A stretch of DNA of 64,000 nt, taken from Thermoplasmata archaeon. GTDB lineage: Archaea > Thermoplasmatota > Thermoplasmata > Lutacidiplasmatales > UBA184. Both the position numbers and the translations under genes were made by a program. Below, piece by piece: positions 29,491-57,364 of this stretch. Where the stretch lies: contig JAKASQ010000001.1 of NCBI GenBank assembly GCA_021828195.1, forward strand, positions 169,202 to 233,201. Reading direction: 5' to 3'. The number at the start of each line of letters is the position of its first letter. Position 1 is the stretch's first letter. The notes under the pieces are model-generated. The model saw only the letters and a list, made by a program, of their open reading frames with translations, ran no database searches and was not told the origin of the DNA.

Positions 29491-29492
29491 CC

Positions 29493-31444: not shown

Positions 31445-33300
31445 TTGGAGACCGGGGGCGATTTCACCTCAGAAACGGTGTAAGGGGTACACGGTCAATT
31501 AGGGACGAATCGAGCCAGTCCTAACGCCTTCACGACCGCGGTCTGCTCGCGGTCCAGCTTCTGGAGCACCACCTTCATCTTCTTCGAGCCCGGGCGCGCC
31601 ATCGCCACCACCTGGATCCGATCCAGTCGACTCGCCAACTGACCGATCGGGATCGTTCCCTTCGTGGCGACCTCCACCCGCCGCTGGATCCACCGGTAGA
31701 ACAGCAACCCCACCACGCACAGGAACGCGTGCACCCGGATCCGTTTGTCCAGCCGGTGGAAGATCGGCATCACCGGCATCAGCAGCACGTCCTTCAGGAC
31801 GTGGAACTCCTCCTCCATCCCCGAGCGGGCGAAGTAGGTCCGCACGATCTGTTCGTCACTCCAGTCGACCCGGTCCGTGAAGACCACCGTCTTCCCAAAC
31901 CCCTCCTTCAGCTCCGCCTCGTGCTTCGCCTCGACCCATCCCGTCACCGTGAACTTGGGCGGGTCGTGGTCGAGCGTCGCCCCGACCCGATATTTGAACA
32001 CCCCCCGCCACTTCGGCGGTAGGGCATCCTCGATCCGCTCCGTCACGCTCTGCACGGTCGAGCGACGACCGCGGTGGGGCTTCGACATCTTCTCTGCCAC
32101 GCTCTGGCACGTCGCGAGGAACCGCTCCTTCGCCCGCTCGTAGTCCCTCGCCTGCCGCTTCCGAGCGCTCTCGTTGAACGCCACCACCACGACCCCGTCC
32201 ACCCCGAGCACCCGCCGCTTCGACCGGAACCCGTGGATTGCCTCCTCCTGCTCGGTCGTGTAGAGCGTTCGGTATGCGGTCCGGGGTTTCGCGAGGAGGT
32301 CCCGCACCTGGTTCCGTTTCAGTGAGGAGAGGAAGTGCACCTGCGCCGCTCGGATCGACTCCAGCCCGTCCTCGGAGTTCACTCCCTTGTCGAAGACGAA
32401 GGTGAGCTCCTCCGCCACCGCGCCGAACTTCCTCAACTGCTCGACCATCGTCCCGACCACCTCCTGAAACAGCCGCGCGTCGTTCTCGTTCCCGGGGTAG
32501 ATTCGGTGGTAGACCGGCAGATGCTGCTCGGTCACCGCCATGGCGAGCCCGACCAGCTTCGCCTGAAGGTTCCCGTCCTTCGCGTGGCCCGGACGAGGCA
32601 GAAGTCGGTCGGGGTCGTCCTCGTCGGGCTGCTGCTCGGTCGAGAAGTTCGTGGGATCGAAGAAGACGAGCGAGGGGCGGTGTCCCTTGCGGACCAGCTC
32701 CTCGCCGAGACGGAGGGTGATCTGCTCCACCACGTCGTCGGTCAGGAGGTCCATGCGCTCGAGGTAGCGACGGCAGGAGAGGGAGGGGAGGTCGGGAACG
32801 AACCGGAAGAGGGACCGGTGCGCCCACTCTGCCATCCCGTTCTTCGAAACCGGCTCGTGAGCACGTCCGGCGATGAAGGCGAGGAGACTCAGCGCGGTGG
32901 CCCGACTGCCCGTGAGTTCCTCGACGACCCTCGAGAAACCGAGCTCGGCGTCCGCGGCCAGGAACGCCGCGCTGGTGCCGAAGGGATAGGGGAGGAACTC
33001 GATCCCTTCAGCGAAGGCGTCCGGGTTCGTCAGGCGCTGGACGAGTTCCTCCTGGGTGCCGAGGTACATCTCGGCGACATTGACGACCTTGCCGTCACGG
33101 CGAGCCTTCTGGACGAGGTAGACGTAGGTGTGGGGGCCGCGTCGGCGAAAGCGGAACTGCACGCGTGCGATAATACCCCCAACATAATGAACATGTCGGT
33201 CGTTCTGCCGATATCACACTGCCCCATTGTCTAATTGATCCTGATGCCCCCAACTCCCTTCTGAGGTGGATCGGGCCTTACCGCCAAAGTGAGGTCTGGG
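31445..33300 (-). mobile_element. IS element, IS1634/IS4-like, with imperfect terminal inverted repeats
   Basis: Left end ...GATTTCACCTCAGAAACGGTGTAAGGGGTACACGGTCAATTAGGG. Reverse complement of right end is ...GATCCACCTCAGAAGGGAGTTGGGGGCATCAGGATCAATTAGACAATGGGG. Encloses a single transposase gene. Confidence 0.6.
31495..33162 (-). CDS. IS1634/IS4-family DDE transposase
   Basis: 555 aa; FVFDKGVNSEDGL..., C-terminal HVLKDVLLMPVMPIFHRLDKRIRVHAFLCVVGLLFYRWIQRRV typical of IS1634-type transposases. Confidence 0.75.
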   Translation of the reverse strand: MQFRFRRRGPHTYVYLVQKARRDGKVVNVAEMYLGTQEELVQRLTNPDAFAEGIEFLPYPFGTSAAFLAADAELGFSRVVEELTGSRATALSLLAFIAGRAHEPVSKNGMAEWAHRSLFRFVPDLPSLSCRRYLERMDLLTDDVVEQITLRLGEELVRKGHRPSLVFFDPTNFSTEQQPDEDDPDRLLPRPGHAKDGNLQAKLVGLAMAVTEQHLPVYHRIYPGNENDARLFQEVVGTMVEQLRKFGAVAEELTFVFDKGVNSEDGLESIRAAQVHFLSSLKRNQVRDLLAKPRTAYRTLYTTEQEEAIHGFRSKRRVLGVDGVVVVAFNESARKRQARDYERAKERFLATCQSVAEKMSKPHRGRRSTVQSVTERIEDALPPKWRGVFKYRVGATLDHDPPKFTVTGWVEAKHEAELKEGFGKTVVFTDRVDWSDEQIVRTYFARSGMEEEFHVLKDVLLMPVMPIFHRLDKRIRVHAFLCVVGLLFYRWIQRRVEVATKGTIPIGQLASRLDRIQVVAMARPGSKKMKVVLQKLDREQTAVVKALGLARFVPN

Positions 33301-33316
33301 AGGCGGACTGAGTCGG

Positions 33317-33778: not shown

Positions 33779-34028
33779 GTGCGGCTCCGCGGGAAGTCGC
33801 GGCTTGGCCGTTCAATTCGGCGTCCACCGAAATCCGGAATCGAGACAGGCGAACGAGTCCCTCCATTCCATCGTGTTTCCATGGCCGGACCCACCCGAAC
33901 CGTGACCTAAGCCCACCCCCGGAATCCGCCCGTGTTGGCGTCTCAGTGTCCGAGGGGGTGCGATCGAACGGCTGCTTTTCGACAGGGTTGACTCTTCGAG
34001 CCTCTTGAGACGGGCCCGGGCCGCTCCG

Positions 34029-34535
34029 TTACCTCGCCCGGCCGCCTGCGATGAGGAGACTCAGAAAGGCCAGGGTGAACGCGAGCAGGAAGCCCACCGA
34101 CATCCCGTACGAGAAGGCGTTGTTCTGCCCGGAGAATAGAAACTCCATGCCGCTGATTCCCGCGCCCAGTACGGCGGCAAACGTTCCCCCGGTCGTGGCG
34201 AGGAGTAGTGTGTTTCGGGAGAGCGCGGATGCCGCGAAGGTGAGAAGGGCGAGGACGCCCAGGACCATGCCGGTGAGCATGTGGGCCATTACGGCCCCCA
34301 TTCCCGGTAGGAACATCAGCTGCATCATTCCGTACATCCCAAGAATGGGCGACGGAAGCGTTACATACAGGTTGACGAACATTCCCAGCACGAATTGGAG
34401 GGCCAACAAACCGAGCTCCACCGACACTAGGGCGACGAGAATCGGGTGACGGGTCCTCGCGACTCTGGGGGCTTCGCGCGTCGTGACGCGGATCGAATCG
34501 ACAGCAGCCGGCGGCATGGAGGAGAGCCTCGTCAT
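34029..34535 (-). CDS. Hypothetical polytopic membrane protein (Met/Gly-rich TM helices)
   Basis: Hydrophobic segments throughout; divergent from first paralog gene; no family recognised. Confidence 0.35.
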   Translation of the reverse strand: MTRLSSMPPAAVDSIRVTTREAPRVARTRHPILVALVSVELGLLALQFVLGMFVNLYVTLPSPILGMYGMMQLMFLPGMGAVMAHMLTGMVLGVLALLTFAASALSRNTLLLATTGGTFAAVLGAGISGMEFLFSGQNNAFSYGMSVGFLLAFTLAFLSLLIAGGRAR

Positions 34536-34644
34536 GGGGGAACGCCACACAGGCCTTAGACTTAACTCGGGACAACCCCAGTCCGCAGGCGGGCAGGCTT
34601 CTTCTCCTCTGACGACCTGTCGCCACCGGCGGTCTGGCTCCGGA

Positions 34645-35391
34645 ATGTCAGGACTGTTCGTACCGGCCGAGTTCGCCGCGATGTTCATGGCCGTCGTGGC
34701 GGTCGTTCTCGGGGTACTGTTCGCGTTTCCGACGACGTTTCGGCTGCGGTCTCCGGGAAGGCGTGTGGCCTTCCTCCGCCTCCTGGTTGGGACGGTCCTA
34801 GCCGTGGATGCGACTCTCCAGTTTCTGCCCGGAGCTTCCCCACAGGTGGCTTACCTGCTCGTGGTCGGAGCCGGTCAGGAACAGCCTGCGCTCTCCGGGT
34901 GGTTCTCGTACTGGGCCAGCGTCATCGCCGGAGACCCCGGATTCTGGTGGTATGGAACGGGAATCCTCATGGCGTGCCTCGCCACCTGCCTGATACTCGG
35001 AGTCGCCCGCAGGCTGGCGTATGTCACGGGGTCCTTCTTCGGCCTGTTGCTTTGGGCGATCCCGAACGGGTTCGGCGGTCCCTACGTCGCCCCCCACACC
35101 GACGTCGGCGCCGGCCTGCTTTACGCCCTCCTGTTCCTGTTCCTCCTCCAGATGGATTCGGTATCGGGCCCGGTCCGTCTTGCCGGCGACGTCATGCTCG
35201 AACGCAGGTGGCCGAAATGGCGAGTGCTCGGCGGCAGGTCATTTCGCCCGCTGCCGCCGCCCGAATCCTACGAGCGACGAGTGACCCGTGATCTATCCGC
35301 GGAGGACTACGTGCCGTCCCCGGATCCTTGCTTGACCGAAGACGCACCCAAGACGCTCGGTCCGCCACCGCAACTCGGGTCGAACCGATGA
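34645..35391 (+). CDS. Paralogous 4-5 TM membrane protein, copy 1 (FGGPY family; possibly DoxX/DoxD-like)
   Basis: LRLLVG..W..DA.LKFLP, WWYGTG, LWAIPNGFGGPYVAPHTDVGAGLLYALLFL conserved blocks shared with six other ORFs in the window. Confidence 0.6.
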   Translation: MSGLFVPAEFAAMFMAVVAVVLGVLFAFPTTFRLRSPGRRVAFLRLLVGTVLAVDATLQFLPGASPQVAYLLVVGAGQEQPALSGWFSYWASVIAGDPGFWWYGTGILMACLATCLILGVARRLAYVTGSFFGLLLWAIPNGFGGPYVAPHTDVGAGLLYALLFLFLLQMDSVSGPVRLAGDVMLERRWPKWRVLGGRSFRPLPPPESYERRVTRDLSAEDYVPSPDPCLTEDAPKTLGPPPQLGSNR

Positions 35392-35508
35392 TCGAGTCGT
35401 CGCTTCCGCGGGAAGGTGTCGCCGTTGTGGAGCGAGGCACGAAGCCGTGCGCCCTGAAGAGTGCAGAGGGTTCCACACCCGCCGAACGGGAATGGGAGTG
35501 ACCGACGA

Positions 35509-36246
35509 ATGAACGATATCGCCCTGGCCTTCGAGGTGGCCGTCCTGCTGTTCGTCGGCGTGACGGTGGGAGTCGCTTTGGCGGCTGCCGTGGGAGGACG
35601 GCTCCGAACGATCCTCACCCCGTCGGTTCGCACGACGGTACTTCGAATCTTGTTCGGGGCGGTCTGGATCGCGGATGGCCTGCTCCGCTTCGTTCCCGGG
35701 ACCTACGCGCAGCTTTCGTACTGGCAGGTCGTCATGATCGAGGACGGTCAGCCGCCTTGGCTTCTTGGTTGGCTCACTTTCTGGGCGGGCATCATCGCGG
35801 GTACTCCGGCCTTGTGGTGGTACGGGTTTGGGCTGATCGAGCTCGCGCTCGGCTTCTGCCTGTTCACGGGGTTCCTGCGCCGACCCATCTACCTTGTCGG
35901 TCTGGCCGTCAGCATCCTCCTCTGGACGGTCCCCCAAGCTTTCGGAGGACCCTACGGTCCCGGAAGCACCGACATGGGCACGGGGATCCTCTATGCCGTA
36001 ATCTTCCTCGCCTTACTCCATCTCGACTCGATTTCGGGACCGCCCCGGTTCACGCTCGACACGACCGTGGGACGGCAGTGGCCGGCGTGGCAACGGCTGG
36101 TCCAAGCCCGGGTCCCGACGCAGCCAGCCGCTGCACCGCGGGAATCCAGCGTCAGCCTCGGACGGTCAGCTGACCGTACATCCCTGATTGAGCGTGGCCC
36201 GGCATCATACAGAGATACCAGAACGTCCCCGGGCCCGCGAAGCTGA
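35509..36246 (+). CDS. Paralogous 4-5 TM membrane protein, copy 2
   Basis: LWTVPQAFGGPYGPGSTDMGTGILYAVIFLALLHLDS; same block order. Confidence 0.6.
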   Translation: MNDIALAFEVAVLLFVGVTVGVALAAAVGGRLRTILTPSVRTTVLRILFGAVWIADGLLRFVPGTYAQLSYWQVVMIEDGQPPWLLGWLTFWAGIIAGTPALWWYGFGLIELALGFCLFTGFLRRPIYLVGLAVSILLWTVPQAFGGPYGPGSTDMGTGILYAVIFLALLHLDSISGPPRFTLDTTVGRQWPAWQRLVQARVPTQPAAAPRESSVSLGRSADRTSLIERGPASYRDTRTSPGPRS

Positions 36247-36874
36247 GCGTGGCAGCGGTAGTCTCGTAGACCGGGTTGGCACTCGTTGCCGTCATTCCAT
36301 CGACCATCATCGACCCCACGGAAAGCCAGCAGCCGCTCCCGTCACCCATTCCCATCATCCCTCCCCCGCTCATCATCGGCATGTACGGATATGGCGGCGG
36401 CTGGGTTGTCAGGGCGAAGTCGTGGGACTCGTTGTCCATGTTGATGAATTCGAACCGCACCGGCTCTCCCGACGGCACGGAGACCTGCGGGTTCACGAGT
36501 CCGTAGCTCAGGAAGTAGTTCCCGGAGTGAGGATACCACACGGGCGCCCCCTCGACGAGCAACGTCGCCCCGGGGGCAGTGACCGTGATCGAGTTCATCG
36601 CCGGAGTTTCGCTGACCCCGGGGGGCAATGAGTTTTCTTCGGTGAACGTCTGATTGTTGATCGTTGAGACCGTCGGGTCGTGCTGAGCGACCGAGGAGCA
36701 TCCCGCCGGAGCCAGTGCCGGCTTCTCGACGATCATATAGGCAAAGGCAATCCCCGCGAGACCGACGAGGATCGCCACCACCAGAACGACGACCACGGGC
36801 CCGAGAGGACGACCCGGAGGGTGCCGGCCGGGCGCCGACGAGTCGATCGTGACATTCTCCGTGCCGGCCGTCAT
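36152..36874 (-). CDS. Membrane-anchored cupredoxin (type-1 copper site) with Met-rich segment
   Basis: N-terminal TM anchor; ESHDFAL (His1) ... FWYLCMMPGHAQSGMYGQLTV = C-x2-P-G-H-x3-G-M type-1 Cu ligands; PPYPYMPMMSGGGMMGMGDGSGCW Met-rich motif. Confidence 0.65.
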   Translation of the reverse strand: MTAGTENVTIDSSAPGRHPPGRPLGPVVVVLVVAILVGLAGIAFAYMIVEKPALAPAGCSSVAQHDPTVSTINNQTFTEENSLPPGVSETPAMNSITVTAPGATLLVEGAPVWYPHSGNYFLSYGLVNPQVSVPSGEPVRFEFINMDNESHDFALTTQPPPYPYMPMMSGGGMMGMGDGSGCWLSVGSMMVDGMTATSANPVYETTAATLSFAGPGTFWYLCMMPGHAQSGMYGQLTVRG

Positions 36875-37515
36875 GGGTTCTGCTGGCCCGGAGGAGTTGC
36901 TGGGACCTCATCAGGTCTGCGAGAGACCCTCTCCGAACGGCGGAATACCGAAGTAGAGACCTCCGCCCAGCGGGCCCAGCCCGGCCAACTGCGCTCGATC
37001 CAGCCGTCGACGGTCCCCACCTTCGCGGATGGGTCGGCGTCGAGCACCAACAGGAACAGGAATGCGATCGCGTAAATGACACCCACTCCCACGTCAAAAG
37101 TGCCGACGTCGTAAGGGCCCCCGAACCCATTGGGAACCGCCCAAATGAACAAGCTCAGGCCCATCCCCCCGAGGTAGGCTGTCTTTCTCAAGAGTCCCAG
37201 GGTGAGCGAAACGCACAACGCGAGCTCGAGAAAAGTGACGACCCCCACGTCCATTGCCGCGTATTGCTGGGATTGGACGACCCAGAAGGCATACCAGCCG
37301 GAGAGCCAGGAAGGCTGGCCGATGCTCGCGGCGAGAACGCTCTCGGAGAACCAGAACGGAGTCTGCGGGAAGAACGCGAGCGCGGCATCGATTCCCCAGA
37401 CGAATCCGAAGATCATACGGGCTGACCGACGAACCGCTCCGCGATGGCGGAGGATCCACCCCTCACCATGCTCCGCGACGCCGATCATCGCAGGATGTCT
37501 CCCTCGGGATTGCAA
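36871..37515 (-). CDS. Paralogous membrane protein, copy 3 (lacks first TM helix), co-oriented and overlapping with cupredoxin gene
   Basis: IFGFVWGIDAALAFFPQ...WAVPNGFGGPYDVGTFDVGVGVIYAIAFLFLL; 4-nt overlap with downstream cupredoxin. Confidence 0.55.
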   Translation of the reverse strand: MQSRGRHPAMIGVAEHGEGWILRHRGAVRRSARMIFGFVWGIDAALAFFPQTPFWFSESVLAASIGQPSWLSGWYAFWVVQSQQYAAMDVGVVTFLELALCVSLTLGLLRKTAYLGGMGLSLFIWAVPNGFGGPYDVGTFDVGVGVIYAIAFLFLLVLDADPSAKVGTVDGWIERSWPGWARWAEVSTSVFRRSERVSRRPDEVPATPPGQQNP

Positions 37516-37716
37516 CCACTCATCCCGCTACTTGTGGGGGCCGTATGAACCGCGGGGGCGGCGCCCGTCGTGTCCTCTGTTGGCACTTGTCGATGCGGCC
37601 GTCCAAGAGCCCGACCGTTCGGTGGGAGAATCCGTCCGTCGACTACTGGTGACCCAACACCTCGTTCCCGTCCGTTGCCCGCTCGCAGTCAATCTTTATA
37701 CCAGCCGTCCGGGTAG

Positions 37717-38577
37717 GTGCGACGCATGACCGACTGGGAGCGCGTCGAACAGCTTCGCGCCGACGGGGTCAGTTGGGACAAGGTAGCCAGTGATCGGAAG
37801 GCCGGTTTCCACCCCCCTCCGGGCGCCGACGCCGGCCGCGCCCTGCGGACTCTCTATTTCCAGCGTCGCTCCCGGAGCAGCCGTTCGGGGCCCCAAACTC
37901 CAGGAGGTTCCGAGCGCCGGGGAGACCGGGCCGGCAGAGGCGGACCGAAGCGATTGCGCTCGATCATAATCGGCGGTTCCGCCGTCACCGTGCTGATACT
38001 GGTGATCTACCTCATCCTCACGTCGGGTGTTCTCTTCGGGGGTCCGCCGAAGCCAGGAACCAACCCGGGTCCGGGGGCAGCTGGGACTCTTGCGGAGTTC
38101 AACTACCTCAGCCAACAATCCACCGACGCGTGTGTGTGGACGGGAGTCAACCTCGGCGATGAAACGTCGTACGTCAACTGGATCAACGGATTGGCGGATA
38201 ACACCTACATCCAAGGCTCGTGTTGTAGCCCGATGGATTTCACCCCCGACTATTCGTCCCAGATTCCCGGCCTCACGAGTTACGCCTCGATCTCCCTCAT
38301 CCCACCGGATCCCTACAATGTGGTCGCGCACACGGCGAAAGCCGATGTCGCCCATGCCGGTGACGCGCTCACCTCGAGCCAGCAATCCGTCTTCAACACG
38401 GCGGCGAGCAACACGAACGACAACGGCTGGTGCTGCTGCCAGTGCTGGGCCTACTACGCTCATGAGGGCCTGGCGAAGGCCCTGATCGTGCAGTACGGCT
38501 ACACTGCCCAGCAGGTGGACACGGTCATCAACCTCGAAGACTGCTGCGGCGGGCCCGGCCCGATGAACATGCCGTAA
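37717..38577 (+). CDS. TM-anchored Cys-rich protein of unknown function (CC, CCCxC, CC motifs)
   Basis: Basic cytoplasmic N-term, one TM helix (IIIGGSAVTVLILVIYLILTSGVLF), then extracytoplasmic Pro/Gly/Asn-rich domain containing GSCCSPMDF, NGWCCCQCWAYYAHEG, LEDCCGGPGPMNMP. Confidence 0.5.
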   Translation: MRRMTDWERVEQLRADGVSWDKVASDRKAGFHPPPGADAGRALRTLYFQRRSRSSRSGPQTPGGSERRGDRAGRGGPKRLRSIIIGGSAVTVLILVIYLILTSGVLFGGPPKPGTNPGPGAAGTLAEFNYLSQQSTDACVWTGVNLGDETSYVNWINGLADNTYIQGSCCSPMDFTPDYSSQIPGLTSYASISLIPPDPYNVVAHTAKADVAHAGDALTSSQQSVFNTAASNTNDNGWCCCQCWAYYAHEGLAKALIVQYGYTAQQVDTVINLEDCCGGPGPMNMP

Positions 38578-38622
38578 CCTCCCGGGGTCGCCCTGCCCCT
38601 CCTCGGAAGGTCGCAAGGAACC

Positions 38623-39213
38623 GTGTCGACCGCGGGTGTTCGGGACCGAACCCTGCCGACGTGGTTCTTCCACAATCCGCTTCGACGGTGGTTCAAGAAG
38701 CCGGGCCGCCTGATTGACTTCTGCCCGCCAAGGTCGGGGGACGTGGTCGCGGATCTTGGTGCCGGAGGCGGGTTTTTCCTGGCAGAGCTAAGTCGAAGAG
38801 TCGGGTCAGCGGGACGGATCTACGCCGTCGATATCGACGACGGCGCCCTGTCGTTGGCGCAGCGGGTCGCCACCACCTTGGAGGTGACGGACCGGGTGGA
38901 GTTCATCCATTCCTCCGCAGCTTCGGTGCCATCCATCCCTTCCGGCGGTGTGGATTACATCCTTTCGAACGGGCTCCTTTGTTGCCTGATCGACAAGGAG
39001 CGAGCGATGGAGGAGATGTGGCGAATCCTCAAGCCGGGTGGCCGTGCCTTGGTGACCTTCGTAACGATTGGTCCGCGCTTTACCGCCCGCGGTAGGGCCC
39101 TGCGGACATCGGAGCGGAGATTCCGCGAGTTGCTTTCGAGACGTTCGTGGGAGGTAATCCCAGGCAAAGCCAAGCCGTTCTCGCGGCGGTTCATCTTGAG
39201 GAAGTTCGGTTGA
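38623..39213 (+). CDS. Class I SAM-dependent methyltransferase
   Basis: VVADLGAGGGFF motif I, IYAVDIDD post-I, DYILSNGLLCCL motif II, LKPGGRALV motif III. Confidence 0.65.
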   Translation: MSTAGVRDRTLPTWFFHNPLRRWFKKPGRLIDFCPPRSGDVVADLGAGGGFFLAELSRRVGSAGRIYAVDIDDGALSLAQRVATTLEVTDRVEFIHSSAASVPSIPSGGVDYILSNGLLCCLIDKERAMEEMWRILKPGGRALVTFVTIGPRFTARGRALRTSERRFRELLSRRSWEVIPGKAKPFSRRFILRKFG

Positions 39214-39626
39214 CCCCCGTTGATAAGAAACCGGATGGACAAGGTCCGGCGCCGTCGCCATCGAACTCGGTCTCGGACCGCGGCTGCGTCAATCGGCAGT
39301 TCATCCGCAGTCGACTACTCTACAGGGAGGGCCGCCGACACTCCGGAGCGTACCGCTCAGCATCCGCAGGATCTCGAAGTAGGGGAGCGATGTGAGCGGT
39401 TCGCGCCGACCACGAGGGCCTCAACTCTGGGCTGACGGACCCGGTGAGGGCGTGCGCGATCCGCTGCACTCTTTCCCGGCGCCAATCTCCTGAGCGCCGT
39501 CGACCTGCGTGCCGTTCCGACGTGGTCAGCGAATGGGTTCGAGGCGGCCGCGGATTCCCGCCTCCAGAGTCGATTCTCGTGGACCGCGACGTCGAAGGAT
39601 GCGAACGCGACTGGAGGTCGGACCCT

Positions 39627-40217
39627 TCATTGCCGAGGCGCCGCCAGCCAGCGCGACAACCTTGAGAATCTCGCGCGTCCGGTCGCCCAGATCCAGTGGT
39701 CGACGGCCACGTACTTCCCAGCTCCTCCGGTGAAGAGAATCAGATAGATCAACAGGTAGAGCGGATGCGGTCCCACGTCGGTACCACCGGGAATCTGAAA
39801 CGTGCTCAGGAATTGGGTCGCGAGGAAGATGACAGAGGCTAGCCCGCCCACAATGCACGCCAAACGGGTGGTGACCCCGAGAACAAAGGCGATGGCGAGG
39901 TAGGCCGTGAGGAGGGCGGTCATCCATGCAAACGCGGTCGCATGGGCCGCAACAAAATTCGCGACACTGGGGCCTCCAAGACTCGTAGGTGCAAAGGAGA
40001 GCACAGTCTCCCGGAATGTGGGGAAGAACTGATTGGCCGGATCCACGATGAAGATCATGTTCAGGACCCAGACGAGGCCTACCCCCACGCGAAGAAGGTC
40101 GATGGACATCCCCTTTGGGTCGGATTGCCACAAGTCACGCAGGTGTCCGTACCAGGTCCGCCCGGACGGCCCGACGGAAGGGGATTCGGACTTGTTCTCG
40201 TCCCGACGGTTCACCAT
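39627..40217 (-). CDS. Divergent paralog of the FGGPY membrane family, copy 4
   Basis: TFQIPGGTDVGPHPLYLLIYLILF corresponds to FGGPY..TDxGxGxLYAxxFL block; downstream of second cupredoxin-like gene on same strand. Confidence 0.45.
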   Translation of the reverse strand: MVNRRDENKSESPSVGPSGRTWYGHLRDLWQSDPKGMSIDLLRVGVGLVWVLNMIFIVDPANQFFPTFRETVLSFAPTSLGGPSVANFVAAHATAFAWMTALLTAYLAIAFVLGVTTRLACIVGGLASVIFLATQFLSTFQIPGGTDVGPHPLYLLIYLILFTGGAGKYVAVDHWIWATGRARFSRLSRWLAAPRQ

Positions 40218-40360
40218 TCCACCGCTGGACGACTTGACAAGCGAAAACCCCTTGGGTCGACGTCCGACCAGCGTAGCGCTCTCTGTTCAACTACCGGTGA
40301 GTGAGGGCCGGGTGCTCGCGACCGAGTCTCGGCGCACCTTCGTGTCGCTTCGGTACAAAG

Positions 40361-40930
40361 CTACGAGACGGTCATCGTGCCGCTCATGTACCCGGGAGTG
40401 CTCATTGGTCCCCCCGTGAATCCCCCCGGGCCGGTTCCGCATGGCGACATGCAGAACCACGAGAACGTCCCGGCGTTGGTGACGTCGACTGTGAACGACA
40501 CGACGCTCTGCCCCGGACTCAGAACGTTCAAGCCGAACGCTGGAATCGAGAACGTGTGCGCGACATTGGAGATCGGGACCGTGCTGTACGGCGTGCCGTT
40601 GATCGTCTCCACTCCGTTAACGGTCCCCTTTACGGCACACGGGCACCCCGTCCACTCCGCGACGGCGTCGTGATCGGTGATCGTAAAGGCGACCTTTCCC
40701 TGGGGGACGTCAAAGCTCGTGGGGGAATACTGGGGCCAGCCGGTCGTGGTGTTGAACGAGACCGTGAGGTTGACGTACGACGTCTGACCCGAGGTCGACG
40801 TGGTCGTCGCCGGACCTGCGGCACTGGGAAACGTCACCAGCAAGACACCCGCCGAAACCACGACGGCAATTGCCAACACGCCTGCGACGGCGTTGAAGTA
40901 ATCCTGATCCTTCATCGTTCTTCCCTCCAC
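40361..40930 (-). CDS. Secreted/anchored cupredoxin-like protein with atypical Cys motif
   Basis: Signal/TM anchor, Thr/Ser-rich linker (GPATTTSTSGQTS), beta-rich domain with AHTFSIPAFG and FSWFCMSPCGTGPGGFTGGPMSTPGYMSGTM (C-x3-C-G as in CuA, but no His-x2-Met directly after). Confidence 0.45.
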   Translation of the reverse strand: MEGRTMKDQDYFNAVAGVLAIAVVVSAGVLLVTFPSAAGPATTTSTSGQTSYVNLTVSFNTTTGWPQYSPTSFDVPQGKVAFTITDHDAVAEWTGCPCAVKGTVNGVETINGTPYSTVPISNVAHTFSIPAFGLNVLSPGQSVVSFTVDVTNAGTFSWFCMSPCGTGPGGFTGGPMSTPGYMSGTMTVS

Positions 40931-41487
40931 TTACCGGATTCCCTGAGGCGGTCCTTCGCGGAACAAGAGCGACTGTACGGGCACGTATTCTATGCCCGCG
41001 TACGGGGATAACCTCTCCCACTCGCATTCTCGGGGTTGAGAACGATGGGTCCCGAACCGGTCGACGGGACGGACCAGGACCGGTTGACCGCCATCCCCCG
41101 GGAAGGGGTCAAACCGCTGGCGAAGATGGTCCGGGTGACGTCCCTCCATTCCAGGCCCTGTGTCTCGACCTTCACCGGGCTCCCTCGTTCGGCAGTTCCC
41201 GCCGGCAAAGGCGCCCTCCATCGCAGTCGAGAGCTCGAATGTCTCCGGGACCACTAAAGGCGGGTGAGCGACCTGGGCACTCCGGGTTGGCTCCCAACCC
41301 AGGACTTTCGACGCACGTCCACGGTTCACTCTCTGACGAGAAACGGACCCGGAGGTCGCGCCGTAAGTGCTGGTCTCGTTCCCATAGCGTCAGTCTCTGT
41401 GAGCGGATCGTTGTTGAAGAGGCGCCCCGTTGGTCAGGGGGGCCCGGGGACGGGTGGTGGGGACGCCCGTTCGGAGTAGCCCGCAAG

Positions 41488-42384
41488 TCAGTGCGGCTGA
41501 CCTCCGCAAGTGCAATCGGGAGCTTCCACCTGGATCGTCACATGTCGTATCCGAAAACGCTGGCGGACGATGTCCTGGGCGACGTGAGTCACGTGATCGT
41601 CTTTGGGTTCCGCCTCGAGCACTAGGTGGACGCTCATCGCCTCCGAGCCGGAAGTGAGCGTCCAGACGTGGAGGTCGTGGACCGCCCGCACGCCCGGGAG
41701 GTCGCTCAACGAGTTTTCGACCTCTGCCGGGTTGATGTGCGTCGGCGTCCCCTCGAGCAAGATAGTGAGCGTGTCCCGGGAAAGCCGGAAGGCGAAGACC
41801 CCAATCAGCGCCGCGACGAAGAGGGTCGCCACAGGGTCCGCAATCTCAATCCCTCCAAATAGGATCAGGGCCCCGGCGACCACTGCGCTGAGTGAACCGA
41901 GCACGTCAGAGAGGATGTGCAGGTACGCCGCGCGAATGTTGATGTTCAATCGGCCTCGGACGCGGAGGACGCGGGCGATGGCGAGATTGGCGACCAGGGA
42001 GAGCGCGCCCACGACCAGCACGACCGGACCATGAACGGGCGCGGGTGTTCGGAAGCGCAGGTATCCCTCGACGACGAAGAGGGCGGCCAAACCCCAGAGG
42101 ATGAGGGCATTCGCAAACGCGGCGACTACCTCGCCCCGGCCGTGGCCGAACGAGTGGGCCGAGTCGGCCGGTCGGCTCGCCCAAGTGACAGCAAGGAGCG
42201 CGAGCCCTAGGGCGGCCAGGTCGGTGAGGTAGTGACCGGCATCCGCCAATAGGACGAGGGAGTTGGCCGCGAACCCACCGATGAGCTCTATCACCATGAT
42301 TACCGACCCGGCGGCGACTACCCAGAGGAGTTGCCGCCGATTTTCCCGGGCGAAGGCGCGAAGGTGCTCGGATTCGTTGCCCAT
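41488..42384 (-). CDS. Cation diffusion facilitator (CDF) family metal efflux transporter
   Basis: LLADAGHYLTDL, HSFGHGR, HILSDVLGS motifs; C-terminal cytoplasmic domain ending in CTCGGQPH; start at MGNESEHLR. Confidence 0.85.
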   Translation of the reverse strand: MGNESEHLRAFARENRRQLLWVVAAGSVIMVIELIGGFAANSLVLLADAGHYLTDLAALGLALLAVTWASRPADSAHSFGHGRGEVVAAFANALILWGLAALFVVEGYLRFRTPAPVHGPVVLVVGALSLVANLAIARVLRVRGRLNINIRAAYLHILSDVLGSLSAVVAGALILFGGIEIADPVATLFVAALIGVFAFRLSRDTLTILLEGTPTHINPAEVENSLSDLPGVRAVHDLHVWTLTSGSEAMSVHLVLEAEPKDDHVTHVAQDIVRQRFRIRHVTIQVEAPDCTCGGQPH

Positions 42385-42720
42385 GGAATGCTGGTCGCTC
42401 CCAGTGCCGCCGAACCGCTTTAACCGAGACGGTCCGGGAGAGATCCCCTCCTCCGTGTTCAGCTTCGACCGCGATCTCTCGGTGTCATTCCTAGGCTTCC
42501 TCTCCCCCCAAGCCCACCGTTGATTCTCGGGGCCGGTCCCACGAGGGATGGGGTACAGGTCTACAGGGGTCCGCGCCGGCCCCCCAGTCAAGAGCATTGG
42601 TGAGGCCGGGGGATGGCCTCGTGCCGTCGGCACGGGAGGCGCCCGAGGAGGGGCCGTCGGAGTCCATGCGCGACTCTCTTCAGCCTCGTGGCCCTCTCCC
42701 AAGGCGGGGTTAACCGAGGG

Positions 42721-43437
42721 ATGACAGTTCTCTTCCTGCCGGCCGAGGTCCTGGCAGTTTTTGTTGCAATCTCAGCCGCTGGACTCGGCGTACTCCTCAC
42801 TGCCCCCGAGACCTTCCGCCTCCGCTCTCCGGGAGGTCGAGTTGCCTTGCTTCGAGTGCTCGTCGGCGCCCTTTGGGCCACCGATGCCACGCTCAAGTTC
42901 CTACCGAGAGCCCCTCCCGTACTCGCATATTGGCTTGTGGTCGGCGCGGGCCAGGATCAACCGGGGCTCTCTTGGTGGTTTTCATACTGGGCTGGCGCAG
43001 TTGGTGCGAATCCTGCCCTCTGGTGGTACGGCACCGGTGCGCTCGAGGCGCTCTTGGCGACTGCCCTGCTGCTCGGATTCGCCCGCCGCCTTGCATATGT
43101 TGCCGGATTCCTTCTCAGCCTCTCCCTATGGGCAATCCCAGAGGGATTTGGCGGCCCCTACCTTTCGAGCACGACCGATGTCGGCGCGGGCCTGCTTTAC
43201 GCGCTTCTGTTCTTGATGCTCCTTCAGATGGATTCCGTCTCGGGTCCGGCACGGTACGCGGTCGACGCAGCCTTGGGGCGCCGCTGGCCCAGTTGGCGCT
43301 TCATCGGAGGCGGTTCCTCCCGTGTCGTTTCGGCCCACGGCAGCGAAAGCCGCGAGCAGGCGTCCCCTCCGCTCGTGGCGGATCCGATCATCGAGGGTCG
43401 CCGGGGAGAGGTTCCCAGAGCGGGTGCAGACCGATGA
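42721..43437 (+). CDS. Paralogous membrane protein, copy 5
   Basis: LWAIPEGFGGPYLSSTTDVGAGLLYALLFLMLLQMDS; most similar to copy 1 (same block order and near-identical C-terminal motif). Confidence 0.6.
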   Translation: MTVLFLPAEVLAVFVAISAAGLGVLLTAPETFRLRSPGGRVALLRVLVGALWATDATLKFLPRAPPVLAYWLVVGAGQDQPGLSWWFSYWAGAVGANPALWWYGTGALEALLATALLLGFARRLAYVAGFLLSLSLWAIPEGFGGPYLSSTTDVGAGLLYALLFLMLLQMDSVSGPARYAVDAALGRRWPSWRFIGGGSSRVVSAHGSESREQASPPLVADPIIEGRRGEVPRAGADR

Positions 43438-43551
43438 CCCATACTCCTCGCCCTTCGGCGATCCACGTAGCCGGCCTCCCAGCTCCCGGCCCGCCCGTGC
43501 CGCTGGGGACCTCTTCGCGCCGCCGGCAAGCCAGGTTCGGGTGACAAGAAC

Positions 43552-44232
43552 ATGGGCGTAGTCGTTCTTGCGTTCGATGTTTTCCTCCTCCTGACGATGG
43601 GCACGATAGTGTCGATAGCCCTGGTGGCGGGCTTCGAGAAGGAACTGAAGACTATCTTCTCCCCGTCGGGCCGGACGGGCTTCCTACGGATTCTCTTCGG
43701 TGGGGTCTGGCTGGTTGACGGCCTGCTCAGGTTCCAAGCGGGAGCGTCCCCGCAGCTCTCCTATTGGATGGTCGTCATGGCCGGCCAGGGACAGCCCGCA
43801 TGGCTCTCGGGGTGGTATGCCTACTGGACAGGCTTCATTGGCGGCGCCCCGACATTCTGGTGGTACGGGGTCGGCTCCATCGAACTCGTGATCGCGGTCT
43901 GTCTTATCGCGGGATTCCTCCGCAAGCCGGTGTATCTCGTCGGCCTGTGTCTCAGCCTCTTCCTCTGGACGGTGCCCGAAGGTTTTGGTGGACCCTACGC
44001 TCCCGGGAGCACCGACATGGGGGCTGGAATCCTGTACGCCGTCGTGTTTCTCGCCTTGCTGCATCTCGACTCGGTTTCGAGTCCCCCCCGGTTCGCTCTC
44101 GACACGGTGATCGCGCGGCGGTGGCCGACGCGGAGACGGCACGTCCCGGCCGAAGTCTCGATTTCGGCGGTCGTCGCACAGGAGGATTCCGTACTCGCCG
44201 TCGGCTCGTCGGAAACCGGTACGTACCGGTGA
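43552..44232 (+). CDS. Paralogous membrane protein, copy 6
   Basis: LWTVPEGFGGPYAPGSTDMGAGILYAVVFLALLHLDS; most similar to copy 2. Confidence 0.6.
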   Translation: MGVVVLAFDVFLLLTMGTIVSIALVAGFEKELKTIFSPSGRTGFLRILFGGVWLVDGLLRFQAGASPQLSYWMVVMAGQGQPAWLSGWYAYWTGFIGGAPTFWWYGVGSIELVIAVCLIAGFLRKPVYLVGLCLSLFLWTVPEGFGGPYAPGSTDMGAGILYAVVFLALLHLDSVSSPPRFALDTVIARRWPTRRRHVPAEVSISAVVAQEDSVLAVGSSETGTYR

Positions 44233-44331
44233 GCCCTCCGGGCGGAGCATCCAAACCCGCCTAGGGACCCCTTGCTACCTCTGACCGCGGGTAGCCCTGG
44301 CTCAGCCACGGTTCCAGCCGGTCCCATCCCC

Positions 44332-44850
44332 TCAGCCGCCTCCCATATCCCCGTCCGCAGTCGAGCGGCGTTGCGGAACTACTTCGGCCCACCGGTCCCA
44401 GCCGGGTATCCTCCGCTCGATCCGGGCATCCAGAGTTCCCCGGCTCGAATCGTGGCTGACCTCCAGGGCCAGGAGGAGTAGGAACGCGAGGGCGTAGACG
44501 AGCCCGGTTCCGATATCGAAGCTACCGGGGACGTACGGACCGCCAAACCCCTCCGGCACGGCCCAGATGAGGAGACTGAGGGCGATGCCGCCGATGTAGG
44601 CGAGCTTCCTCAGGAACCCGGTGAACAGCGCGAACGCCAAGGCGAACTCGAGGCCGGTGACGAGGGAGACATCGAGTGCCGCGCTCGCGCTCGTCTGGTG
44701 GACCCAGAAGGCGAACCAGCTACCGAGCTAGGCCGGCTGGCCGATGCTCGCTGCCAGGACCCTCTCGGAGAACCAGAAGGGGGTCTGGGGCAGGAACTTG
44801 AGCGCCGCATCGAGCCCCCAAACGAGTCCGAAGAGTTTCCGGAGGGAGGA
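44332..44850 (-). pseudogene. Paralogous membrane protein, copy 7, disrupted by in-frame TAG (minus-strand codon at 44728-44730) and lacking a start
   Basis: By-eye translation KLFGLVWGLDAALKFLPQTPFWFSERVLAASIGQPA*LGSWFAFWV...WAVPEGFGGPYVPGSFDIGTGLVYALAFLLLL; stop replaces the conserved Trp (SIGQPSWLSGWY in copy 3). Confidence 0.55.
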
Positions 44851-45387
44851 TCGTATTTGGCCAAGGTTCCGTTCGGCCCATTCATCCTCGGATACCAAGG
44901 GACCGCTCCGACCGCGGAGACGGGGCGGGCCGCTTATACGAGCGATGTCCGAATCGGATCGCGACAGCGGTGCTTTACTGTTGACCGCCGAGAGATCGGC
45001 CGCCTTCAGGCCGTGGTGACGTGGGTCGGAGCGACCGGAGTATCAACACGACGAGAAAGGCGATGAGAAGCCCGCCGATTGCCACACCAATGAGCATGTA
45101 CACCCACATGAGGGCCGACATGGCGGGACCGGTCATGCCGAAACCCATGGCCCCACCCGCGAGGACATGTCGCACATCGCGAGCGAGATGGCCGTGGCAA
45201 TAGAAGCCTCTTGCGGAACTCACGACCAAGCTTGAGACCGGGGCCGGCCCGCGGGACTCGGGAACACGGCGATTGCCCATGGCGGAATGCAGGGCGCGCT
45301 CTTCCTTGCCTAGACTATCTCCAACCCGGGACTTGGCGAACCAGAGTGGCCTCTGCCAGCCAGCGACCCGAACACGGGGATCGAGTT

Positions 45388-45465
45388 ACATGCTCATCGC
45401 GCCGGGTCCACCGCAGCAGTCTTCAAGGACCAAGACCGCAGCCACCTGCTGGGAATCATACCCCT
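45388..45465 (-). repeat. Inverted ~78-bp copy of the 3' end of the Cys-rich gene (38521-38600), encoding ...KGYDSQQVAAVLVLEDCCGGPGAMSM* with no upstream gene body
   Basis: Direct by-eye comparison: GTTAC.CATG.TCATCG.GCCGGG.CC.CCGCAGCAGTCTTC.AGG...GACCG...CCACCTGCTGGG shared. Upstream in-frame TGA ~40 codons before stop. Confidence 0.5.
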
Positions 45466-45786
45466 TTCCGGTTCCGACCCTTGCCGGTTCGGGTAACGGA
45501 GCCTCCCTTCAGGAAGTACCAATACGAACCGCGAGTTCTTAGCGGGGGTCCCCGGTCGGTCGCCGAACGGAAATGGGGGTGAGCCGGGAAGTCCTCTTAC
45601 AATGTCCCATCCCCCGCGATTCTTGCCGTCAGGTCCCCCGGCTTCTTCGAGGTAGGGCATGAACGATCTGCTGCCCGCCCTGACCTGGCTTCACGTCTTC
45701 TCCGTGATTCCCAACGATGGCAGAGCGGGGTTTGAGAACGAGGCGTAGCTCACGACTCGTGTGATCCCGGTCTCGGATCAAACGGC

Positions 45787-46140
45787 TCAGCTGACGACTC
45801 GGATTCCTTCGCGGATGGTTTGAATGAGCTTTTCCTGCTCGGCCTTGGGCGTGTTCTCTAGAGCCTCAAGCATGTCCTCGAGAATCAGCCCGGTCGCCTT
45901 CTCGAGCGCCCCCCGAACGGCCATCAACTGGAGAAGGACGTCGGCGTACGGCTGATTCTCATCCAGCATACGAATCACGGCATCGAGATGTCCACTCGCG
46001 CGAGACATCCTACCCCGCACAGCACCTTGCAAGTGATGCTCCATACGGCCATCCCCATGCCGGGAGGGGGATTTACCCTTTTTTCCTGTCGCCCTCCTGC
46101 GCAGAAGAAGGTCAAGTTCGTTCCCTTGTCCTTCCGTCAA
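45787..46140 (-). CDS. CsoR/RcnR (DUF156)-family regulator-like protein lacking the canonical Cys/His metal ligands
   Basis: HLQGAVRGRMSRASGHLDAVIRMLDEN.PYADVLLQLMAVRGALEKATGLILEDML resembles CsoR helical core, but Ala replaces the conserved Cys (YCID position) and no HxxxC/H at C-terminus; real start may be M33 (46044). Confidence 0.45.
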   Translation of the reverse strand: MTEGQGNELDLLLRRRATGKKGKSPSRHGDGRMEHHLQGAVRGRMSRASGHLDAVIRMLDENQPYADVLLQLMAVRGALEKATGLILEDMLEALENTPKAEQEKLIQTIREGIRVVS

Positions 46141-46220
46141 TGCCTCGGCCGCATCCTGGCCCTCGGCACGATGGGTTTCCTCGGAAGTAGTTTATAGTTC
46201 ATTCGAATCCCCTGGGGGGG

Positions 46221-49960: not shown

Positions 49961-50665
49961 CTATACACTGGGGGTAGCCACCCCCGATTCCGACCCTTTT
50001 CCGCACACCGAGTTTTGCGCCGGCGGGCGCGGGACCCGGACCTTCCGGCACGTTCCCGCAGGCAACCCTACGTGTTGGGCGACCACCTTCCATGGAAGAC
50101 CCCGCTCGCGGAGACCCCGAATCTTCGCGGCCAGCTCGGCCGTGACACGCCGCGGGCGTCCCGGTGGCCTCCCACTCCGCGTTCGCCGTCGTCCCGACTT
50201 GATCTCCTGCATGGCGACCCGCACCCGCTCCGATCGGCGCTGGGACTCGAACGACGCGATCACTGGGAGCAGAGCGAGCAGCACGTCCCGACCGAGGTTC
50301 GGCTTCCCGTCTCCGGGGGTGTCGAGCGTCGGCTCCCTCAAGCTGTGGAACGAGACACCGAGTCGCTCGAGGTCGAGGACCGCTTGCGTGGCTCGGGTGA
50401 ACGTCGCCTCTCGGCTGAATCGGTCAAGCGCCCAGACGAGGAGGTGATTCCAAGGGCGGTGGCGCAGGTTGGCCTCCGCGAGGAGCCGGTCATACTCGCG
50501 GCGTTCCACCTTCCCGGTCCCGCTGACCTTCTCGGCGTAGACCTTGACCACGTCCCAGGCGCGCCGCTCCGCCTCGGCCCGGAGCTCCCGCTCCTGGCCA
50601 TCGAGATCCTGGTCCTCGGTGCTGACCCGGGCGTAGATCGCGACGGACGTTGGCGGGGTGGTCAT
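49961..50665 (-). CDS. Serine recombinase (resolvase/invertase family)
   Basis: VAIYARVSTEDQDLDGQ catalytic Ser motif, C-terminal HTH (LPWKVVAQHVGLPAGTCRKV). Confidence 0.8.
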   Translation of the reverse strand: MTTPPTSVAIYARVSTEDQDLDGQERELRAEAERRAWDVVKVYAEKVSGTGKVERREYDRLLAEANLRHRPWNHLLVWALDRFSREATFTRATQAVLDLERLGVSFHSLREPTLDTPGDGKPNLGRDVLLALLPVIASFESQRRSERVRVAMQEIKSGRRRTRSGRPPGRPRRVTAELAAKIRGLRERGLPWKVVAQHVGLPAGTCRKVRVPRPPAQNSVCGKGSESGVATPSV

Positions 50666-50853
50666 GGATCTCCTGTCAGCTGGTCGGCGGTGACAAAGCC
50701 CGGCAGATCGGAGGACCCGCGGGGCTTCGGCCGATCGGTGAACCACCGGCGACAGATCCGGCAGACGCGCACGACCCTCGGGCCCCGACGTATCCGATAG
50801 GCTCGAGTCCTCGAGTGACCGCACGGCAACCGTGGTTCATCAGGCTCGGTCAT
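50662..50853 (-). CDS. Small zinc-ribbon protein
   Basis: PCGHSRTRAYRIRRGPRVVRVCRICRRWF (C-x-H...C-x2-C). Confidence 0.35.
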   Translation of the reverse strand: MTEPDEPRLPCGHSRTRAYRIRRGPRVVRVCRICRRWFTDRPKPRGSSDLPGFVTADQLTGDP

Positions 50854-57308: not shown

Positions 57309-57364
57309 CGAGACTATGGGCGCGCCAGGTGCCTACCCTTCCGAAATGGGGGGTTTCCGCGTGT

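Follow-up and report, generated by a model that had tools for sequence, protein, structure and literature searches.

A Thermoplasmata accessory island with DoxX-like membrane proteins and cupredoxins: a possible extracytoplasmic copper/redox-stress module

The DNA analysed here, referred to as the window, is a stretch of 64,000 nucleotides from a Thermoplasmata archaeon (GCA_021828195.1, contig JAKASQ010000001.1, positions 169,202 to 233,201 of the forward strand). Within it lies an island in which genes for seven small DoxX-like membrane proteins, termed M1 to M7, are found together with genes for two membrane-anchored cupredoxins (cup1 and cup2), for a cysteine-rich protein (CysRich) and a methyltransferase, and for a CDF transporter, a CsoR/RcnR-family protein and an ABC system (Table 1). 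In the core of this gene set two recurrent links come together, one between DoxX-like proteins and cupredoxins, which is also seen in fusion proteins, and one between CysRich and rusticyanin-like cupredoxins, DsbA-like proteins or copper-resistance genes. The region had been pointed out before in a reading of the window made from its letters alone (the sequence-only reading). All open reading frames (ORFs) listed there are present at their coordinates, including those for the cysteine-rich transmembrane (TM) protein, the CDF transporter, the CsoR/RcnR-family protein and the ABC system. The comparisons made here cover 80 genome loci, 58 metagenome loci and 71 representative clusters.

Table 1. 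Features of the island and its edges (positions are those of the window).
Feature	Coordinates	Strand	Remarks
TM162	34029..34517	-	Met-rich four-helix membrane protein; divergent from M1; without family assignment
M1	34534..35391	+	DoxX-like, module A; ORF opens at 34483; orthologs in L012, L013, L014, L042
M2	35509..36246	+	DoxX-like, module A; ORF opens at 35461; ortholog P0005 has 245 aa
cup1	36152..36874	-	Membrane-anchored rusticyanin-like type-1 cupredoxin; Met-rich loop (PYMPMMSGGGMMGMG...SMMVDGM)
M3	36871..37488	-	DoxX-like, module A; ORF opens at 37515; translationally coupled to cup1
CysRich	37726..38577	+	Helical N-domain in the cytoplasm, a single TM helix, and nine invariant Cys in the extracytoplasmic domain
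Methyltransferase	38623..39213	+	Class I, S-adenosylmethionine-dependent; directly after CysRich; Pfam Methyltransf_31/11/25 at 1e-18
M4	39627..40217	-	Distant DoxX-like, separate small subfamily; motif TDVG.HPLY; 20-28% identity to the others
cup2	40361..40915	-	Membrane-anchored CuA-type (COX2-like) cupredoxin; ORF opens at 40930; 143 bp upstream of M4
M5	42613..43437	+	DoxX-like, module B, partner of M1
M6	43552..44232	+	DoxX-like, module B, partner of M2
M7	44332..44889	-	Module B, partner of M3; in-frame TAG at 44728-44730; pseudogene or split gene
Second CysRich, remnant	45389..45463	-	C-terminus, 25 residues; tblastn 68% identity to CysRich residues 261-285
CDF transporter	41488..42384	-	Cation efflux, ZitB-like; Pfam Cation_efflux 1.6e-40 and ZT_dimer
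CsoR/RcnR-family regulator	45787..46044	-	PF02583; ORF opens at 46140; Pfam 1.5e-14, 54.5 bits (cut-off 22.8)
ABC ATPase and double permease	46221-47117 and 47129-48745	+	NitT/TauT-like; membership in the system doubtful
IS1634-family DDE transposase	31495..33162	-	Left edge of the lower-GC region; Pfam DDE_Tnp_1 7e-11
Serine recombinase/resolvase	49961..50824	-	Right edge, GC back to 0.69; Pfam Resolvase 1.3e-26

Six of the membrane proteins, M1, M2, M3, M5, M6 and M7, are clear homologs with pairwise identities of 33-56%, and have the block LW(A/T)(V/I)P.GFGGPY..TD.G.G in common. The WWYG block, which the sequence-only reading had assigned to the whole set, is restricted to four copies, M1, M2, M5 and M6. 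Among the six, three pairs stand at 55-56% identity (M1/M5 55%, M2/M6 56%, M3/M7 56%), indicating that the seven genes are two copies of a three-gene module plus the distant M4 and not the simple expansion of one family that had been proposed. In module A, TM162 on the minus strand is followed by M1 and M2 (+), cup1 and M3 (-), and CysRich and the methyltransferase gene (+); module B consists of the CDF gene (-), M5 and M6 (+) and M7 (-) and is without a cupredoxin. Module A (TM162-M1-M2-cup1-M3) recurs, rearranged, in the related metagenome-assembled genomes (MAGs) L012, L013, L014 and L042. The gene order M1-M2-cup1-M3 is kept in all four at DNA identities down to ~77%, and TM162, for which no Pfam or NCBIfam match was obtained, occupies the same position in each of them at 56-84% identity. 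CysRich comes after M1/M2/cup1/M3/TM162 in L012 and L042; CysRich and the methyltransferase gene are seen in related MAGs where the contig extends far enough. Co-transcription with a cupredoxin gene had been proposed for two of the membrane proteins. For M3 and cup1 the proposal is supported by the overlap of the M3 stop and the cup1 start (ATGA), while for cup2 and M4, given their spacing, co-transcription is plausible only.

Both cupredoxins suggested earlier proved to be real. Among the NCBIfam families, cup1 matched rusticyanin (TIGR03095) at 2.6e-23 and 82.9 bits, which is under the curated cut-off of 146.7; further matches were Pfam SoxE at 1e-6, a weak one to CopI (NF051440; 2.7e-5 and 24 bits, under the cut-off of 280) and one to the NCBIfam sulfocyanin SoxE (21.8 bits, under the cut-off of 168.4). 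Residues 89-238 of cup1 align at 1e-11 with residues 22-154 of the PDB rusticyanin 1gy1 over the full length of the domain, ESHDF being placed against GHDF and LCMMPGHAQSGM against VCQIPGHAATGM, so that the His, Cys, His and Met ligands are all kept; the Met-rich segment of cup1 takes the place of a rusticyanin loop. For cup2, a profile of the family searched against the PDB (47 sequences matched) found mostly CuA/COX2 chains, the best at 4.7e-6. The cup2 family comprises 47 homologs, and the few with source names belong to Thermoplasmata. His125, Cys160 and Cys164 (CxxxC), Met176 and Met182 are invariant in it, and a CxC pair is nearly so; the second CuA histidine is missing from the cup2 of the window and not conserved in the family, and is present in the homolog at L041. 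No gene for a haem-copper oxidase subunit I was found near cup2.

In the M4 subfamily, the domain architecture of fusion proteins speaks for a functional tie of DoxX-like proteins to cupredoxins. Searched for among 1.84 billion proteins, this subfamily yielded 71 representative clusters, and in several of these the M4-type domain is fused to cupredoxin domains. In P0311 (380 aa), which occurs on 7 contigs in a housekeeping context and not in a resistance island, an M4-like domain is followed by a TM helix and a cup2-like domain; the ORF at 4636-5847 of L041 is built in the same way, and the gene after it belongs to the main family. P0307 is a Cys-less, Met-rich variant of the fusion, and in P0329 two cupredoxin domains (Cu-oxidase_3, 48.7 bits; SoxE, 30.1 bits) precede the M4-like domain. 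Unfused cup2-M4 pairs occur in L158, L014 and L042, and cup2 alone in L157 and L159. As read from the sequence, P0311 has an R-rich linker and an extra TM helix ahead of its outside cupredoxin, which suggests that loops 1 and 3 of the DoxX domain, i.e. both conserved loops, lie outside as well. A different arrangement was observed in P0291, P0292 and P0298, where an M4-type domain and an extra TM helix are joined to another C-terminal outside domain of ~130 residues; a CxxC is conserved in this domain (GCFICAQ, GCWRCAY, CAECPM), for which Pfam gave no match.

The same cupredoxins and fusions also bear on the alternative that cup1, cup2 and the DoxD/DoxX-like proteins form a respiratory module, an accessory branch of an energy-conserving electron chain. 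Such a branch might transfer electrons from quinol to blue copper and on to a terminal oxidase, much as Alternative Complex III does with auracyanin; or, like the thiosulfate:quinone oxidoreductase DoxDA, it might oxidise Fe(II) or reduced sulfur compounds with quinone as the acceptor. Rusticyanin is the best likeness of cup1 (82.9 bits; 1e-11 in the PDB), cup2 is similar to the CuA domain found in subunit II of cytochrome oxidase, relatives of M4 give weak DoxD and DoxX matches, and the housekeeping context of P0311 speaks in the same direction. Furthermore, a DoxX protein of Haloferax is up 12.6-fold during Fe(III)-reducing growth, a form of extracellular electron transfer (PMC13104607). However, the island is devoid of a haem-copper oxidase subunit I, a cytochrome, Rieske/cyt b and DoxA, and the module is accompanied by insertion sequence (IS) elements and by CDF, ChrB, MerR and ArsP-type genes. 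One of the two copies is decaying, which would be unusual for a core bioenergetic function, and the Met-rich loop of cup1 and its Cys-rich partner are hallmarks of metal handling. We regard a respiratory module as unlikely, though by no means far-fetched.

The second link concerns CysRich, which belongs to an unannotated family of 133 homologs; those with named sources are archaeal and include ARMAN-4, Micrarchaeota and Nitrososphaerales. The nine invariant cysteines are C139, CC169-170, CCCxC239-243 and CC276-277, with the motifs GSCCSPMD, GWCCCQCW and LEDCCGG. The CysRich protein of the window has in addition the helical N-domain of ~60 residues on the cytoplasmic side, for which there was no Pfam match and a weak structural likeness to helix-turn-helix domains. 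Among 150 neighbouring ORFs at 55 metagenome loci of the family, DsbA/Thioredoxin_4 was found 12 times and AhpC/Redoxin 4 times, along with CopC (3), CopD (2), P-type ATPase (3), NikR (3) and ArsR (2). A CysRich homolog adjoins a cup1-like cupredoxin in the DPANN archaeon ARMAN-4 (L093), in L095 and in L139; in L097 it lies beside a Cu-ATPase, YHS and PadR, and in L126 a canonical CsoR with the full Cys-His-Cys triad is located directly 3' of it. The methyltransferase encoded behind CysRich in the window has weak ArsM- and UbiE-like matches far under the cut-offs, and in L095 the CysRich homolog is followed by an unrelated PEMT-type methyltransferase. As a separate observation, a membrane-anchored His-rich protein of ~200 residues (HIHAHLDIF...PVHTHDASGIIHIE) recurs beside CysRich homologs, at L095:4380-4988 and at 9 of the 58 CysRich metagenome loci (among them L153:5386-5949 and L129:699-1163); it has no Pfam match and is absent from the window.

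These neighbourhoods could also be explained if the DoxX-like proteins and the Cys-rich ectodomain serve to mature exported cupredoxins, by delivering copper and controlling extracellular thiols or disulfides, comparable to what Sco/PCuAC do for CuA, to MauE/MauD, or to the HvfX-type DoxX proteins, which NCBIfam names Cu-binding RiPP (ribosomally synthesized and post-translationally modified peptide) maturation proteins. The adjacency of CysRich homologs to DsbA-like oxidoreductases (12/150 neighbour ORFs) and, in three other lineages, to cup1-like cupredoxins would fit a role in biogenesis, as would a weak match of M4 to HvfX (6.6e-4). Yet it would be unusual for a maturation factor to stay fused to its client for good, as in P0311 and P0329, the DoxX-like family is without metal ligands, a cupredoxin gene is not adjacent to the family gene in most genomes that have one, and three distinct paralogs per module are hard to square with a chaperone. 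In our view a biogenesis module is unlikely too, slightly more so than a respiratory one.

The membrane proteins are DoxX-like, a relationship that the sequence-only reading had named as one to check, although none of the paralogs reaches the Pfam gathering threshold. Sub-threshold matches to DoxX (PF07681) were obtained for M6 (20.1 bits, cut-off 23.6) and M4 (13.7 bits), and the Pfam scan of M1, M2, M3, M5 and M7 gave no DoxX match. M6 has 267 database homologs, many of them at 44-53% identity and with stored PF07681 matches; among the matches listed, such an entry was present for ~25 of 120 homologs at 44-53% identity. By transitivity, the family of M1 to M7 is thus likely to belong to the DoxX superfamily, judged from sequence relationships. 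Several M6 homologs carry the JGI label YphA (DoxX/SURF4). The fold of the four-helix membrane bundle resembles that of a solved structure, the best solved-fold match being NACHO/TMEM35A, which is assigned to the DoxX family in UniProt; a sequence-profile search of the family against the PDB returned no match. The family alignment has strong invariant motifs, including GQPAWL and WAVPEGFGGPYGPGSTDIGTG, which are missed by Pfam DoxX. Several DoxX-like proteins of 177-206 residues (e.g. P0032, P0034, P0046, P0105) are labelled by JGI as 'nitrite reductase (NO-forming)', a name that was probably carried over from a reference protein in which DoxX and cupredoxin domains are fused.

In a scan of one genome per species, 373 relatives of the family were found, and the best 80 of these are all from Archaea, namely Thermoplasmata, Micrarchaeota, Bathyarchaeia, Nitrososphaeria, Marsarchaeota, and Nano- and Woesearchaeota. 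Judged from isolate names alone, these appear to be mostly MAGs from mines, acid drainage or soil, a concentration that favours the respiratory alternative to the extent that habitat can be read from names. The family is present as a single copy at 77 of 80 loci of other archaeal genomes, and its clustering in the window is hence unusual. Two side observations relate to these single-copy genes. In the Thermoplasmata MAGs L017, L019, L040 and L071 the gene adjoins one for formate-tetrahydrofolate ligase located downstream; the ligase gene also lies ~7 kb to the left of the island in the window, and either chance or a relic of an ancestral gene order may account for this. In a Marsarchaeota genome (L007:1496-6543; GCA_027354455.1) the family gene is found within 2.5 kb of genes for a copper P-type ATPase with a YHS domain and for a small YHS protein, and directly 3' of a gene for a membrane protein with Yip1 and beta-propeller parts.

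Module B is an old duplicate in decay. Its M7 gene carries an in-frame TAG at a Trp codon conserved in the paralogs (QPA*LGSW compared to QPSWLSGW). The same TAG is found in five independent metagenome contigs (L001-L005), indicating a fixed nonsense allele; a sequencing error or pyrrolysine was rejected as an explanation, because the codon is the same in five assemblies and differs by one base (TGG to TAG) at a conserved Trp. The remnant at 45389-45463 forms the inverted repeat I1 with 38507-38571 and shows that module B once had its own CysRich gene, which was later rearranged. The in-frame TAG, the absence of a cupredoxin and the reduction of CysRich to 25 residues are the signs of this decay. 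In a neighbour-joining tree built from tblastn-anchored ORFs, M5, M6 and M7 branch outside the module-A orthologs, implying that the split between modules A and B is older than the lineages of L012, L013, L014 and L042.

The region as a whole is an accessory island, and probably a horizontally mobile one. In agreement with the sequence-only reading, its GC content is lower than that of the flanks, 0.639 across 33.3-49.5 kb compared to 0.687 upstream and 0.690 just downstream (window average ~69%), and the GC content at third codon positions (GC3) is ~0.78 for the island genes (range ~0.69-0.83) and ~0.86 for long ORFs of the flanks (~0.76-0.93). The IS element said to precede the island is the IS1634-family transposase gene at its left edge (NCBIfam IS1634, 235 bits, over the cut-off of 100), where a truncated MFS gene is found as well. 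The lower GC and GC3, the IS1634 element and the recombinase gene at the edges, and the rearrangement of the module in relatives all point to mobility. An integration site of the tRNA or att type was rejected, since the window is free of tRNA genes and direct repeats that would convincingly flank the island were not found. The flanks consist of archaeal housekeeping genes, such as those for an XPB helicase and its DUF790 partner (28039-31061) and for formate-tetrahydrofolate ligase (25626-27545). Parts or the whole of the island were found on contigs of 3-16 kb at 99.7-100% identity in six independent soil/metagenome assemblies; Thermoplasmata MAGs are the closest genome matches. A comparison of window positions 31483-42423 with L012 (GCA_027376735.1) revealed a mosaic island: the CDF gene is 99% identical, cup1, M3 and CysRich are 95-97% identical, and M1 and M2 are 74% and 81% identical, respectively. 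L012 has the same type of IS (83% DNA identity) on the opposite side of the module, adjoining a shortened methyltransferase gene, and an ISL3 element and ChrB genes in the vicinity.

From this mosaic it might be argued that there is no system at all, i.e. that the region is a junkyard of mobile cargo with a duplicated membrane family, whose adjacency to cupredoxins and to the CDF, CsoR-like and ABC genes is coincidental. The differing identities to L012 (CDF 99%, M1 74%), the varying positions of IS elements, the M7 pseudogene and the CysRich remnant would all be expected in such a case. Across the wider family the neighbourhoods are random, and the CDF, ABC and CsoR-like genes do not accompany module A in relatives, except for the CDF gene in L012. 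Against this stand the order M1-M2-cup1-M3 that is kept in four other MAGs, with CysRich following in L012 and L042, the translational coupling of M3 and cup1, and the linkage of CysRich to cup1-like cupredoxins in several other archaeal lineages, including the DPANN archaeon ARMAN-4. The independent fusions of DoxX-like domains with cupredoxins speak strongly against mere coincidence for the core genes, and we consider this explanation the least likely of the alternatives. For the CDF and ABC transporters, the best reading is that they are unrelated cargo bundled with the module.

With regard to this further cargo, the CDF protein scored above the cut-offs for Cation_efflux (139.5 bits), ZT_dimer (47.8 bits) and TIGR01297 (258.6 bits, cut-off 82.35); its score against the ZitB equivalog, 210 bits, is under the cut-off. 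The CsoR-family protein begins with MEHH and gives weak FrmR and RcnR matches. It was rejected as a canonical Cu-sensing CsoR, since it has no Cys and the ligand positions are substituted. The ABC system is, from its sequence, not obviously metal-related. A second stretch of lower GC (0.648) at window positions 53500-60000 may be another accessory region; the large ORFs on its minus strand (53723-55654, 55651-56712, 57365-58510 and 58405-59790), four in number, had no Pfam match at 1e-5.

Taken together, we favour, at a probability of about 0.4 and hence tentatively, the reading that the island encodes an extracytoplasmic module for copper/redox stress, in which the cupredoxins exchange electrons with the DoxX-like proteins as their redox partners in the membrane. 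The module itself is based on sequence homology, on the order and translational coupling of genes, on fused domains, on conserved ligands and on the statistics of neighbourhoods; copper as the stressor, electron transfer, quinone as the partner and the direction of electron flow are what we infer from them. The core unit would be module A, TM162 / M1-M2 / cup1-M3 / CysRich-methyltransferase, with the cup2-M4 pair beside it. In the proposed mechanism, cup1, cup2 and the nine-Cys ectodomain would act on the outer face of the membrane, where the type-1 site of cup1 under its Met-rich loop and the CuA-like cup2 might bind or oxidise Cu(I) and buffer thiol/metal stress. The two most conserved loops of the DoxX-like four-helix proteins would lie on the same outer face as the cupredoxins, and these proteins might pass electrons between the copper centres of the cupredoxins and the quinone pool of the membrane. 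A coupling of this kind, from extracytoplasmic substrates to quinone, is assumed for other DoxD/DoxX proteins. A role in copper and redox stress is suggested by the type-1 ligands, the Met-rich loop and the weak CopI match of cup1, by the His, CxxxC and two Met kept in the cup2 family, by the redox and copper-resistance genes around CysRich homologs, by the mobile contexts resembling resistance islands, and by published DoxX genes in copper-induced clusters, DoxX genes being core members of the copper-induced bufferin/GIG clusters (PMC11626156, PMC12452194, PMC5413113). The Haloferax DoxX protein that increases under Fe(III) reduction serves as a further precedent (PMC13104607).

A number of findings weigh against this copper/redox-stress reading. 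The single bufferin system tested so far could do without its DoxX gene (PMC11626156). By its sequence, cup1 is closest to rusticyanin, an electron carrier of iron respiration and not a resistance protein, and the CDF transporter is predicted to be of the divalent-cation type and not a Cu(I) exporter. The CsoR-family protein is Cys-less and has Tyr, Met and Leu at the Cu(I)-ligand positions, as aligned to InrS (5fmn) and, for the first position, to Mycobacterium tuberculosis CsoR (2hh7). No copper P-type ATPase, CopA-type oxidase or copper chaperone is encoded in the island. For the main DoxX-like family a redox cofactor is not known, and its alignment is devoid of conserved Cys, His and Met, which makes direct Cu(I) handling by the membrane family itself unlikely. 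A pairing with cupredoxins that is not conserved in other genomes had been named by the sequence-only reading as a result that would refute it, and for the main family this is the result obtained. A Pfam scan of the 143 immediate neighbours at 77 loci of the main family revealed no enriched family (maximum 5/143), and no cupredoxin family was among the 25 most frequent neighbour families at these loci; given such heterogeneous neighbours in 77 other genomes, the link of M1-M3 with cup1 is limited to one clade of Thermoplasmata. For the M4 subfamily, in contrast, the fusions do extend the pairing beyond the window. Finally, a high-potential type-1 copper could not reduce quinone.

A bolder version of the copper/redox-stress reading may be formulated, in which the DoxX-like proteins act as electron gates that are coupled to quinone, need no cofactor of their own and dock CuA or blue-copper domains on the outer face of the membrane, representing a minimal quinol:cupredoxin or cupredoxin:quinone oxidoreductase, and in which the three paralogs form a hetero-complex with the nine-Cys ectodomain in this clade. 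It is speculative and, as it stands, unlikely to be correct. If true, it would provide the first defined redox partner for the DoxX superfamily and establish a novel type of system for copper or electron transfer outside the archaeal cytoplasm. Members of the DoxX superfamily are common in all three domains of life, NACHO being a eukaryotic example, and recur in loci for copper, thiol and oxidative stress. The fusions and the coupled pair of a DoxX-like and a rusticyanin-like protein point to a concrete and testable partner. Likewise, the conservation of the nine-Cys family across archaea, from Thermoplasmata to DPANN, and its linkage to DsbA-like and copper-resistance genes make it a candidate for extracellular copper/thiol handling in archaea of acidic, metal-rich habitats, a process that is poorly known.

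The combination had seemed undescribed to the sequence-only reading, and this holds for the gene set in the literature that we searched, where no paper on DoxX together with cupredoxin, sulfocyanin or Thermoplasmat* was found; neither the coupling of DoxX with cupredoxins, including the fusions, nor the three-paralog module or the nine-Cys ectodomain family was found described. The presence of DoxX in copper loci, however, is already known, in particular in copper-stress operons (PMC11626156, PMC12452194), and the parts of the island are members of known superfamilies or plain unknowns.

Among known systems, the window proteins resemble members of the DoxX/DoxD family (PF07681/PF04173), such as DoxD of the Acidianus thiosulfate:quinone oxidoreductase, DoxX of the M. 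tuberculosis DoxX-SseA-SodA complex and MhqP/YphA of B. subtilis, in being small proteins of four to five helices with the assumed role of a membrane redox partner for extracytoplasmic proteins. They differ by their own invariant motifs, by the purely archaeal origin of the best 80 genome matches, and by having cupredoxins as partners in place of DoxA, SseA or SodA; a DoxDA-type thiosulfate:quinone oxidoreductase was rejected, as no island ORF matched DoxA. Alternative Complex III with auracyanin is a precedent for electron flow from quinol to a cupredoxin without a bc1 complex, but is a multi-subunit haem and Fe-S complex, while the window locus is without a cofactor-bearing subunit. In CopC-CopD pairs and YcnJ-type fusions, an outside beta-sandwich copper protein and a small polytopic membrane protein form a pair or a single fused chain, as is the case here. 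The families are unrelated, though, CopD has conserved His ligands where the main DoxX-like family has none, and CopCD is an importer. Bufferin/GIG clusters, consisting of a precursor, an MNIO protein (DUF692), DUF2063 and DoxX, likewise place DoxX beside a Cys-rich extracytoplasmic protein with a signal or an anchor, and these loci are linked to copper stress and often mobile (PMC11626156, PMC12452194, PMC5413113). A RiPP cluster of this kind was rejected for the window, since neither DUF692 (MbnB_TglH_ChrH) nor DUF2063 was detected in Pfam scans of the island ORFs. In contrast to the bufferin precursors, CysRich is a folded domain of 200 residues from an unrelated family and not a RiPP precursor, and the locus described here has cupredoxins and an archaeal host. 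While membrane anchoring, coupling to a DoxX-like gene and the lack of cytochrome or oxidase neighbours set cup1 apart from rusticyanin, SoxE and CopI, it shares with rusticyanin the fold and the His-Cys-His-Met site over the full length, and with CopI and CueO a Met-rich segment near the copper site.

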